Assembly: GCF_013167455.1 (NCBI RefSeq)
Contig: NZ_CP038328.1
Reading direction: 5' to 3' (one strand)
Length of the DNA stretch: 64,000 bases
Source of the DNA: Escherichia coli O157:H7
GTDB lineage: Bacteria > Pseudomonadota > Gammaproteobacteria > Enterobacterales > Enterobacteriaceae
Shown in pieces: positions 1-3,000 of this stretch. How positions within the stretch are numbered: the first letter of the stretch is position 1; every line of letters begins with the position of its first letter. Position numbers: made by a program.

Positions 1-3000
1 TGACCCGTCGTAAGGAGCTTGGTCTGCGTGAAGCACAGCTTGCCCGGCAACAGAAAAATAACGAGCGCGATTTTGAGTTTGCGCAGTCTCAGTTTGAACA
101 TAATAAAAACGTTGATCAGCGGAACTTTGATTACAGAGCCAAAGTTGACGACCGTAATTATGCACTGAAGGAAAGGGAGTTTAACGCTAACCAGAATTAC
201 CGGAATGCGTCACTGGGTATGGAGCAGCAGCGACTCCAGTTGCAGAAATACAACCAGCGACGGCTTGAGTATAACGATATGATTGCCCATAGCCAGCCAC
301 TAATGGAAGCGCTTGGAAAAGCAATTGAGGCTGGCGATCAGGAGGCTGCAACGCGTCTGTTCGGGCAGCTGCCAAAGGGACATCCATTAATTCTTATGTC
401 AAACGAAGGCTATGCAGCGAAAGCGGGTCAGGCCGTGATCAACCTGCAAAAAATCTTTGGTGATAAGCCGGACATGGCGATCGATTCGCTGAATACCCCG
501 GAAAATCTCGATGTGCTTTCCGGCGTGTTTGCCCCGGAACTACAACAGCGTATTGGCATGCCTGATTCAACCGGGGACAAAACGATAAAAGAGGCCAGGA
601 TTGGCAGTATCGTACCAGCGCAGCAGGAAGGGTACGTACTTATTGGCCTTGATCTCACATACAGCGATGGCTCCACCGCGCATAAACCTGTAACAGAATA
701 CGGCAGTGCGCACCCTGATGATCAAACCGTGCTGGCGATACCCGTTGATAAGGCTATCGCTCAGGTCAGGGATCGCAGCAAATTTGCAGAGATATCGAAA
801 AATTATGGTTATTTTATGCCGAAGCAGCAGGGACTTTCTCTGAAAGAGCTTCAGAAGGGGGCCAGCAACGTAGCGGCGGACGCGATCAAGAATGGCGGTA
901 ATGCTCAGGCTGCGGTGGATGAATATTATGCTGCGACTGGTTCACAACCGCATCAACAGAAAATTCAGCAACAAAAACTTCAGCAACAGGTTATCAACTG
1001 GGCGGGAGATGATCCTGATAAGCTGTCATTTGCCAGAAATGTAGCGGCCCGTCAGCCTGAAATGCTGGAACCTCAGAATCAGAAATTGCTGGAGAACGGG
1101 TATGCGAATTTTCTCCGTATTCAAAAGGCCAGGGGGGAACAGGCCAGAGATGAAAGTGCTTCATCTGCATCTCAGTTTATCCGTGGACTGAAACAGAATT
1201 ACGCCCAGTAATTCACGATATTCCATTAATACCATTTCCTGATGCCCGGCCATTGTGCCGGGTTTTTTTATGGAGTCTGTATGGCCTATTCAGAGGAACA
1301 GCGTCCTGAGGCGCAACTCGGTAACCAGAATCGTAACAGCCTGAACATTCAGCAACCCGGCGAAACTGACAGCTATGAAGCATTTTTCTCTGATCCGAAT
1401 CGCTGGAAGGATAACAGTACGTCGTTCAGCCTGGGCGATGTATTGCCAACAATGGGTAAAGGTTTCGCCCAGTCCGTCCGGGGAACAGGGGAAATGGCCC
1501 GTGGACTCGGTGATGCGATGATTCAGAGCCCGGTAAAAACAGGGGCGCGTATTTTAAATGAGTTCAGCCGTATGGGGCTGCCGGGTGTCGCAACTGTGCA
1601 GGATATTTTTGCCGGTGGCAGCAGGGGGGCTGATGAGGTCATCGATACCCTGCCTGATGGCAAAAACGCGGTTACTGATACTGTCGGTAAAGGTCTGAAG
1701 GCAACCGGTAAGGCTGTCAGTGATGGTGCCAAAGCCACTGATGAATGGCTGACCGGTAAGATGTCGCCGGGTGCAGTTCGTGCGCTGAATACGCCGATGA
1801 CCGAAGGCTATAATGATTCTGCGGTCTGGGTGGCGAAGGGTGTAAACCTGATTGGTGCGCTTGTACCTGATATGGTTGCTGGCGGTGTGGCTAGAAAGGT
1901 GGGTGATGTCACACTGCGAAAAATGCTGACCGCCGGGCTGGAGAAAAAATACATCGCGGCAGGGATGCAGCCGGAAAGAGCCACGGCACTGGCAGCAGAA
2001 GCTGTCGATAAAAAAATGCCGGATTTATTCCAGGCGGGCCTGATCACCCATTCCACTGTAAGTGCACAGGGGCAGAGTGCAATGGCGGCAGCAGATGCTG
2101 TTCTTAATGCTGATTACTCTGAGCTGGCGCAGTCACCGAAATTTCAGCAGACGTTTTTGTCCATTGACGCCGACCCGCAGCACGCACAGCTTACTGATCG
2201 CCAGAAAATGGATCTGGCAAAAGAGCGTGTTGCCGATGAGGTGCGCGCGCAGCTGGCAACCGATCCTGAATTGCTGGCTGTGAATGCCATGGCGGCAAAA
2301 CTGGGTGACGCACAACTGTTTAATCTGGTGACACGAGGCACAGCGAAGACCGTTAAAAGCGGCATTGTCAGAAATGCCACGGAACAGGGGGCGATTAATG
2401 CGGCGCAGGGCGGCTATTCACGCTATCAGGAAAACACGGCATTGCGTGAGACCGCCGGAATGGGTGTGTCACCGTGGGAGGGCGTGGCTGACGCAACGAT
2501 CGAAGGTGCAGCCTTTGGTGCTGCGATGGGGGCTCCATTCGGTGCGGTTGCCGGATATCGTGGCAGACGTCAGGCCGCAGAAGAAACCGCCATGCGTGAT
2601 GCTGAAACCGTGCAGCAGGACGACGCAGCCCCGCAACCAGAATCTGTTGATCCGGTGGCGCAGCAGCGTGAATCCATGCAGGGCATGAATCGCGAGCAGC
2701 TTCTGGAGCAGTATGCTGATGCGGATATGGCAACAGAGGGTGACGCATCCGCAGCTCATCGCCGGGAAGCTGCCAGCCAGTTGTTGAATGAACTGGACGA
2801 ACAGACGAAGCGACAGGCTGTGATGAATGAGCTGAAGGCGAAGCCGCGTTCTGAACTGCTTGAGGAATACCGCAGACTCAGCCAGAAAGAGGGGCGCACC
2901 GAGACTGAAGAACAACAGTTTCAGGCAATACGAGAAGTCATTCGCCCACAACAGGAAGTGACGCCGGAAGCACAGTCACAGCCTGAAAATGCGGAGGATG

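Follow-up and report, generated by a model that had tools for sequence, protein, structure and literature searches.

A 421-residue virion protein encoded beside a giant polyvalent protein in Shiga toxin prophages is a candidate ejection protein

The 5′ end of a 64,000-nucleotide stretch of the Escherichia coli O157:H7 genome (RefSeq assembly GCF_013167455.1, contig NZ_CP038328.1; the whole stretch is referred to here as the window) belongs to the late operon of a short-tailed Shiga toxin (Stx) prophage of ~60 kb, and holds the gene for a 421-aa protein followed by the gene for a giant polyvalent protein of 2,793 aa. The first of these genes is open in frame 3 of the plus strand from position 3 to a TAA codon at 1209-1211, and the 330-aa open reading frame (ORF) called at 219-1211 is the portion of this longer coding sequence (CDS) that follows an internal methionine. 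Records that are 100% identical place the ATG 55 nt upstream of the window, giving a full CDS of 421 aa of which only the first 18 residues are missing from the window. The ATG has an AAGGAG Shine-Dalgarno sequence ahead of it and an in-frame TGA directly before it, and this N-terminal start is backed by the tryptic peptide SGFAQGLLAGFSTVDQAMTR (residues 2-21) from virions of phage phi24B. A sequence-only reading of the window had proposed that the protein is longer than the 330-aa ORF and that the element continues past the window start; both proposals were correct, with the Stx prophage reaching further upstream, but the gene itself continues by only 18 codons and is closed there by the TGA. 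An in-frame stop immediately upstream of the window, which the same reading had named as a finding that would speak against it, is therefore nearly present, just before the ATG. The features of the locus are as follows.

1-1211, plus strand: last 403 codons and stop codon of the 421-aa CDS (PHROG 601 match, identical records and virion peptides)
3-329, plus strand: in-window part of a predicted helix, residues 20-128, holding the Arg/Asn/aromatic motifs (AlphaFold2)
555-743, plus strand: conserved core, residues 204-266, a small beta-sheet in the predicted model (alignments, tblastn and AlphaFold2)
954-988, plus strand: 15-nt unit in 2.3 tandem copies, encoding Gln-rich QQKIQQQKLQQQ (repeat search)
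999-1031, plus strand: C-terminal motif W.g.DP.k..F, residues 352-362 (family alignments)
1244-1269, plus strand: intrinsic-terminator-like element with a 7-bp GC-rich stem, a 6-nt loop and seven T (scan, centroid fold and conservation)
1272-1283, plus strand: Shine-Dalgarno sequence GGAG and ATG (1281) of the giant gene (invariance in five phages, RefSeq annotation)
1281-9662, plus strand: gene for the giant 2,793-aa polyvalent protein with LPD5/LPD1/MuF_C/LPD38 domains; Sp5 ORF80, phi24B gp47 (RefSeq annotation, domains)

The first 1,300 bases of the window are 100% identical to many chromosomes of enterohaemorrhagic E. coli and to Stx-converting phages, including TL-2011c, VT2-Sakai, 933W-like phages and relatives of phi24B. 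The 421-aa protein is WP_000012450.1, Sakai ECs1241, Sp5 ORF79, phi24B gp48 and VT2-Sakai H0149; it is 100% identical to H0149, and the correspondence to Sp5 ORF79 follows from gene order in E. coli O157 Sakai, where ECs_1241 immediately precedes ECs_1242, the gene for the 2,793-aa protein. The gene is a known, ordinary component of a well-studied Stx prophage, and no new kind of element or system is involved.

In E. coli the gene belongs to a cassette that encodes, in order, proteins of 218 aa and 148 aa, an 83-aa glycine-zipper membrane protein, the 421-aa protein and the 2,793-aa polyvalent giant. The same general order is found in relatives, where proteins of ~210 aa and ~125 aa and a glycine-zipper protein of ~63-205 aa precede a homologue of 436-501 aa and a giant of 2,782 to >4,891 aa, as in the following loci.

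Aeromonas phage phiARM81mr: upstream proteins of 212, 124 and 85 aa (the last annotated 'bacteriocin'); homologue of 466 aa; giant of 3,190 aa
Vibrio phage D56: upstream proteins of 201, 117 and 77 aa; homologue of 467 aa; giant of 3,066 aa
Genome-borne prophage L012: upstream proteins of 219, 127 and 86 aa; homologue of 462 aa; giant of 2,782 aa (LPD5/LPD1/MuF_C/LPD38)
Metagenomic contig L013: upstream proteins of 193, 148 and 205 aa; homologue of 501 aa; giant of >4,891 aa, with a 4-nt gene overlap

The homologue lies directly upstream of the giant gene, in the same orientation, in five loci, and on every contig of sufficient length a giant LPD38-type gene is its neighbour. The partnership with the giant gene that had been proposed from the sequence is upheld by this adjacency, which is kept in Aeromonas, Vibrio and metagenomic relatives; the protein itself is a known object (Sp5 ORF79/phi24B gp48). 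In the Stx phage, which encodes an N4-gp56-type capsid protein, the 421-aa gene is placed after lom and hok, beside the giant and glycine-zipper genes and away from the adaptor and nozzle genes.

The 83-aa protein (L001:13684-13935, just upstream of the window), annotated as a 'bacteriocin', consists of a charged helix and a C-terminal glycine-zipper membrane segment, ...GAVIGGIAGSLF, and is probably a membrane-inserting ejection component. A counterpart of its gene is located immediately upstream of every family member examined, and the 205-aa upstream protein of L013 has the glycine-zipper end '...GLLASSLF', compared with '...IAGSLF' in E. coli. The 218-aa product of the first cassette gene (L001:12569-13225) has a weak PHROG match to a virion structural protein, and its size matches that of gp14/gp7-type outer-membrane ejection proteins. 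Other genes of the relatives were noted as well: an opposite-strand HNH endonuclease gene (L004:10539-11330) splits the glycine-zipper gene from that of the 467-aa homologue in Vibrio phage D56; in phiARM81mr the virion structural module encodes, by the tail-fibre genes, a retron-type reverse transcriptase together with a '23S rRNA intervening sequence protein' (L003:1995-3628), possibly a diversity-generating retroelement; and an AIPR (abortive-infection) gene (L012:20484-21389) is located immediately after the giant polyvalent gene, at the prophage end.

The gap between the 421-aa gene and the giant gene measures 69 nt to the real start, ATG 1281. The GGAG at 1272-1275 and ATG 1281 are invariant in five diverged phages, whereas ATG 1242 is ACG in Stx2_EH2011, so that of the 30-70 bp first suggested for this gap the longer figure stands and the shorter rests on an unconserved codon. 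A mechanical ORF call at 1242-9662 (2,806 aa) begins inside a hairpin, GGAG-N5-ATG at 1281 gives the annotated 2,793 aa, and the phi24B study used a still longer frame of 2,811 codons. Diverged Stx phages keep the hairpin, at 1244-1269: in Stx2_EH2011 one G-C pair has become A-T by a compensatory change, and Lys12581Vzw and GER2 share a change that leaves wobble pairing intact; an Rfam search with the hairpin returned sub-threshold matches only. Because it is conserved with compensatory and wobble-preserving changes, the element is probably a functional intrinsic terminator. Late transcription in lambdoid phages, Stx phages included, is Q-antiterminated, and both genes could therefore still be co-transcribed after induction despite the terminator. 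The suggestion of a single operon thus agrees with the conserved adjacency and shared orientation but has to accommodate a conserved terminator hairpin in the gap: co-transcription of the 421-aa gene and the giant gene is plausible, and would need Q antitermination through the terminator. In the lysogen, the terminator may halt read-through from the upstream moron promoters (lom, hok), shielding the giant gene.

Published genetic data are available for both genes, as Sp5 genes were deleted systematically by Mondal et al. (PMC5155283). Deletion of ORF79 (ECs1241) gave no plaques and no lysogens and was complemented, while ORF79-deleted particles contained a wild-type level of DNase-resistant genome and had heads that looked normal (PMC5155283). 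Deletion of the giant ORF80 resulted in the same phenotype, deletion of ORF76 strongly lowered infectivity, and the authors grouped ORF79 and ORF80 under 'tail formation', reading the lack of anti-tail-fibre antibody binding by ORF79-deleted particles as a tail-assembly defect (PMC5155283). By consecutive numbering, ORF76 would correspond to ECs1238, the 218-aa first gene of the cluster.

Evidence that the protein is a virion component comes from a cryo-electron microscopy (cryo-EM) and proteomics preprint on phi24B, in which the giant gp47 was proposed to be packaged in the head and ejected (10.64898/2026.04.10.717836). In that dataset gp48 is represented by 1,634 peptide-spectrum matches (PSMs) overall and by 179 in the batch sample, where it ranks fifth among phage proteins, and its peak gel slice adjoins the 45-kDa capsid protein band (10.64898/2026.04.10.717836), which indicates that gp48 is full length in virions. 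The gp48 peptides match the window protein exactly, from residues 2-21 through 381-391, and include the motif-region peptide DFEFAQSQFEHNK as well as SGFAQGLLAGFSTVDQAMTR. With portal, nozzle, lateral fibre or needle as the reference, a crude calculation from PSMs per residue puts gp48 at ~18-37 copies per virion. The proteins gp47, gp49, gp50 and gp51 were likewise detected in virions, gp49 being treated as a contaminant by the authors because of its 'bacteriocin' annotation; gp48 is outside the cryo-EM model of capsid, portal, adaptors, nozzle, needle and fibres, is unmentioned in the main text, and carries the label 'Transcription factor?' in the proteome supplement (10.64898/2026.04.10.717836). 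Two properties of an ejection protein are therefore found in the published data, namely presence in purified virions, and a requirement for infectivity and not for capsid assembly or DNA packaging.

The protein matches the PHROG 601 profile over its whole length (E 1.6e-213; residues 1-421 against positions 1-434 of 443), and an exhaustive HMMER search through 1.84 billion cluster representatives defined a family of 66 clusters at 50% identity (E < 1e-3), with members mostly of 400-580 aa. An N-terminal segment, G.A.GF..GF...D, is conserved in the family, as are a C-terminal motif, W...DP....F, and the core (residues 204-266; G..DP.tGK.I...VTYxDGStAxKPVT...DD.V..IP), the most conserved part, to which tblastn matches in Vibrio and Aeromonas phages were confined. 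The AlphaFold2 model of the 421-aa monomer, with a mean predicted local distance difference test score (pLDDT) of 84, consists of a long helix and a globular domain; after the helix come a helical bundle, a small beta-sheet (213-266) and helices at the C-terminus. Neither the full protein nor the family profile gave a significant match in Pfam, NCBIfam or PDB sequence searches; a match of VTYxDGST to a Gram-positive surface-protein repeat (6s5w, E 0.13) was set aside as a short motif coincidence. No match below E 1e-3 was seen in a whole-chain Foldseek search against the PDB, and a BFVD search returned solely the protein's own family. As judged by these sequence, profile and fold comparisons, PHROG 601 is a small, dark, fold-orphan family that accompanies giant polyvalent proteins.

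The N-terminal part of the protein had first drawn attention through short Arg/Asn/aromatic motifs, taken to be periodic and to be followed by coiled-coil-like sequence. The motif strings RDFEFAQSQFEH, RNFDYRAKVDDRNYALKEREF and NANQNYRNA are present as quoted, at residues 41-88 of the full protein (window ~66-209), but neither a periodic repeat nor a coiled coil was confirmed. Matches to [RQ][ND][FY] occur at residues 41, 59, 70 and 83, which are 18, 11 and 13 residues apart; four matches in 96 residues give p ~0.0006 in composition-preserving shuffles, for a motif that was picked post hoc. The best ungapped self-similarity of the region, at offset 11, is marginal (p = 0.044), and the DNA of the motif region contains no tandem or direct repeat. 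The gene has a single true repeat, the tandem at 954-988 (90% match), which encodes part of the C-terminal helical region. Residues 4-128, which include the motifs, are predicted by AlphaFold2 to form one continuous alpha-helix of ~125 residues and ~185 Angstrom (pLDDT ~90 there), and hydrophobic periodicity at 3.5-3.6 residues, as expected of heptads, was not significant in this helix in a scan from 3.0 to 4.2 (p = 0.39). In an alignment of 49 family sequences, motif 1 is widely kept, with R/K at position 41 in 31, an aromatic residue at position 43 in 29, and a hydrophobic residue at positions 45 and 50 in 33-34; it is the only motif conserved broadly, motif 2 lying within an insertion limited to close relatives. 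The motifs are best described as an irregular recurrence within one long predicted helix. An aromatic stripe on one helix face (F43, F50, F61, Y72, F79) was considered and dropped (shuffles p = 0.65), as was a single-alpha-helix (SAH) domain, since i,i+4 salt bridges are not in excess.

A natural fusion containing part of this family was also identified. P0143 (L015:10001-14161; also L016:856-5016) is a 1,386-aa chimera in which residues 5-356 match the phrog_601 N-module (E 3e-39), residues 346-480 match the C-terminal half of the gp20-type phrog_2534 (E 2e-21), and residues 745-1383 match PHROG 770 'DNA transfer protein', with 36% identity to authentic P22 gp16 by direct BLASTP (E 2e-77). 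PHROG 2534 also includes the N-terminal half of P22 gp20 (E 3e-112), and the phrog_601 module in P0143 therefore takes the place of the N-terminal half of gp20. A Pfam scan of the P0143 C-terminus gave no match, the Pfam release probably being one without PF26808. The island carrying P0143 has integrase, AlpA, primase (DUF927) and Bro-N genes and no giant nearby; it looks like a phage satellite with its own ejection-protein fusion, and the fusion fits the documented mosaic module swapping among ejection proteins.

Comparison with characterised systems gave likenesses of arrangement, with differences in sequence. P22 gp20 and Sf6 gp12 resemble the 421-aa protein in size (471 and 431 aa), as products of the middle cassette gene directly before the largest ejection protein, and as virion proteins needed for infectivity and not for packaging; the gp20 N-terminus 'GGFLAGIGAQ' and the corresponding 'GLLAGFSTVD' are both Gly/hydrophobic-rich. 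However, no significant sequence or profile similarity to gp20 was found (hhalign probability 1%), and the downstream partner in P22 is the 609-aa gp16 instead of a 2,793-aa polyvalent giant, the latter showing no similarity to gp16 by BLASTP. P22 gp20 and Sf6 gp12 are 'gp15-like' tunnel proteins of P22-like podoviruses, and tube formation by the 421-aa protein would be a prediction by analogy. The closest design parallel is the gp52-gp51-gp50 cassette of N4 (Schitoviridae; DEV gp72/gp73), of 150, 644 and 3,500 aa (PMC12633501, a preprint in which gp51 and gp52 are labelled inconsistently between abstract and body), where a small membrane-active protein and a mid-size helical protein likewise accompany a packaged and ejected giant of ~3,000 aa or more. 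The N4-gp56-type capsid protein is shared, and the mid-size protein is largely alpha-helical in both. In contrast, no homology to N4 gp51 was detected by profile comparison, gp51 has predicted membrane helices at both ends where the 421-aa protein has none, and the N4 giant is an RNA polymerase and not an LPD5/LPD1/MuF_C/LPD38 polyvalent protein.

T7 gp15 would be alike in proposed role and in gene-order position, but at 747 aa, and as a visible core stack in the virion, it is unlike the 421-aa protein, and the T7 core structures, as covered by the PDB searches, showed no fold similarity to it. Bcep22 gp74 and JC1 gp68 (~510-530 aa), which were found in virions by mass spectrometry (PMC9144972), also lie directly upstream of a DarB-like LPD38 giant (4,500-4,600 aa) and have a similar Gly/hydrophobic N-terminus, 'GIGAFAQGLMQGM'; however, only the N-terminal 27 residues of gp74 align, weakly (hhalign E 0.006, probability 6%), and both proteins belong to PHROG 9667 and have a long Pro/Ala/Thr-rich linker, neither of which applies to the 421-aa protein. 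The Dar accessory proteins of P1 (Hdf, DarA, DdrA) are smaller head proteins required for the incorporation and delivery of DarB (PMC9144972); P1 is a myovirus, and the likeness would be one drawn by analogy from the literature. A published size-and-synteny rule assigns 'gp15-like' tunnel proteins of 431-982 aa, which are not recognised by sequence and were matched at only 7-9% identity (PMC8954989). By this rule the 421-aa protein is gp15/gp20-like, as it is encoded directly before the giant in five loci, though its length falls 10 residues short of the lower bound; by homology it is not, with an hhalign probability of <=1% against P22 gp20 and N4 gp51/gp52 and no PDB match.

The reading we favour, to which we give a probability of roughly 55%, is that the 421-aa protein is an internal virion (ejection or pilot) protein, the middle member of an Stx-phage ejection cassette, that contributes to a conduit; its location inside the capsid, its ejection and its oligomerisation into the conduit are what we infer from the evidence above. 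It would then be the functional counterpart of P22 gp20, Sf6 gp12, T7 gp15 and N4 gp51, the likeness to known tunnel proteins being an analogy and not family membership. During the late phase, polymerase antiterminated by Q would read from the late promoter across the conserved terminator into the giant gene, and tens of copies of the 421-aa protein would enter the head alongside the DNA. Release of the tail needle at infection would let the cassette proteins exit via the tail, the conserved Gly/Phe-rich N-terminal segment and the ~185-Angstrom helix would help to build or extend a channel across the periplasm, and the giant protein, then the DNA, would travel through that channel.

Several points weigh against this reading. 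Comparisons of sequence, profile and fold linked the protein to none of P22 gp20, N4 gp51/gp52, T7-type proteins or PDB entries, and nothing in the sequence itself points to a 'tube': a hydrophobic membrane segment is lacking (highest Kyte-Doolittle mean over 19 residues, 0.85), and the long helix is without amphipathic or heptad periodicity. The AlphaFold model is of a monomer and cannot speak to oligomerisation. The P0143 fusion ties the family to ejection proteins, but shows association and not the function of the module. That gp48 leaves the particle on ejection is a prediction of this reading. A further difficulty concerns the tail, as P22 ejection-protein mutants give normal-looking tailed particles. 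ORF79-deleted Sp5 particles, in contrast, were not bound by an antibody against ORF67, the tail fibre (PMC5155283). A pure conduit does not explain this failure, which sustains two rival explanations.

The first of these is that the protein is an incorporation factor or internal scaffold, which recruits, folds or tethers the 2,793-aa giant in the procapsid and has no role in a channel. We regard this as rather unlikely, although it is in keeping with the strict adjacency to a giant LPD38-type gene, for the phenotype shared by the ORF79 and ORF80 deletions, and for the abundance of both the 421-aa protein and the giant in virions. It also has precedents, since P1 needs Hdf and DarA to load DarB (cited in PMC9144972), and N4 gp51 has been proposed to hold the N-terminal domain of gp50 as well (PMC12633501). 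However, the module is fused to gp20/gp16-type proteins in P0143 with no giant nearby, and can therefore work without an LPD38 giant, and the protein in mature virions still has its conserved N-terminal Gly/Phe motif. A role in incorporation and a role in the conduit are not mutually exclusive.

The second, which we consider improbable, is the conclusion of the Sp5 authors in its broader form: a protein for tail assembly or head completion, or a plug, which would act where portal and tail meet or sit disordered within the tail lumen, and without which tail and fibres would not be stably attached. Normal DNA-filled heads together with the loss of anti-ORF67 labelling in the ORF79 deletion are what such a protein would predict. 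In N4, the gp52 N-termini lie in the adaptor lumen and gp51 lies around the portal (PMC12633501), so internal proteins can touch the tail, and the phi24B study refers to 'internal tail contents' as limiting how the tail is oriented (10.64898/2026.04.10.717836). Yet the phi24B cryo-EM structure explains the portal, two adaptor rings, nozzle, needle and lateral fibres without gp48, and ~18-37 copies of a 47-kDa protein amount to too much mass for a plug of the lumen. The grouping of the gene with the giant and glycine-zipper genes, after lom and hok, and not with the adaptor and nozzle genes, and the fusion of the module to ejection proteins in P0143, also argue against it. Finally, an injected regulator, which would enter together with the DNA and influence the expression of host or phage genes, is hinted at by the 'Transcription factor?' label and by the effectors that polyvalent-protein systems generally inject (PMC5512222), but is very improbable for a protein that has no DNA-binding or other Pfam/NCBIfam domain and no standout fold match to regulators, is essential for infection, and is present in tens of copies, a structural scale.

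Should the 421-aa protein indeed contribute to an ejection conduit, PHROG 601 could represent a structurally new class of trans-envelope conduit, unrelated to the solved ejectosome parts of T7, P22, N4 and DEV, which together with the glycine-zipper protein passes giants of 2,800 to >4,800 aa through a podovirus tail. Its N-module would then be portable, a satellite-like island having joined it to a gp20-gp16 fusion, perhaps as a means of riding in, or sabotaging, the ejection machinery of a helper phage. We put this forward as speculation that is more probably wrong than right by a wide measure.

Short-tailed Stx phages carry Shiga toxin genes from one E. coli to another, and the phi24B structure paper, which gives no role to gp48, counts the passage of DNA and a 310-kDa protein across the envelope among its open questions (10.64898/2026.04.10.717836). 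Essentiality for plaques and lysogeny, dispensability for packaging, abundance in virions and absence from the cryo-EM model were already known for the 421-aa protein; new here are the size of a family that has no Pfam, PDB or fold relative, the constant glycine-zipper and giant context, and the P0143 fusion to gp20/gp16-type modules. Treating ECs1241/gp48, the glycine-zipper gp49 and gp50/gp51 as a likely ejection cassette gives concrete experimental targets, and would correct both the 'tail formation' label and the 'bacteriocin' annotation. Giant polyvalent proteins in Vibrio, Aeromonas and other phages come with the same cassette, whose mechanism is of moderate interest to phage structural biologists.

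The giant gene is the last prophage gene in the window, and the prophage ends within ~220 bp of its stop codon, being without ~4.4 kb of genes that come after the giant gene in Sp5 and in an O111 prophage. The host gene yfdC (9885-10817, minus strand) follows, and then mlaA and fadL. Between mlaA and fadL, a patch of 37% GC contains a gene for a 343-aa hypothetical protein (12261-13292, minus strand).

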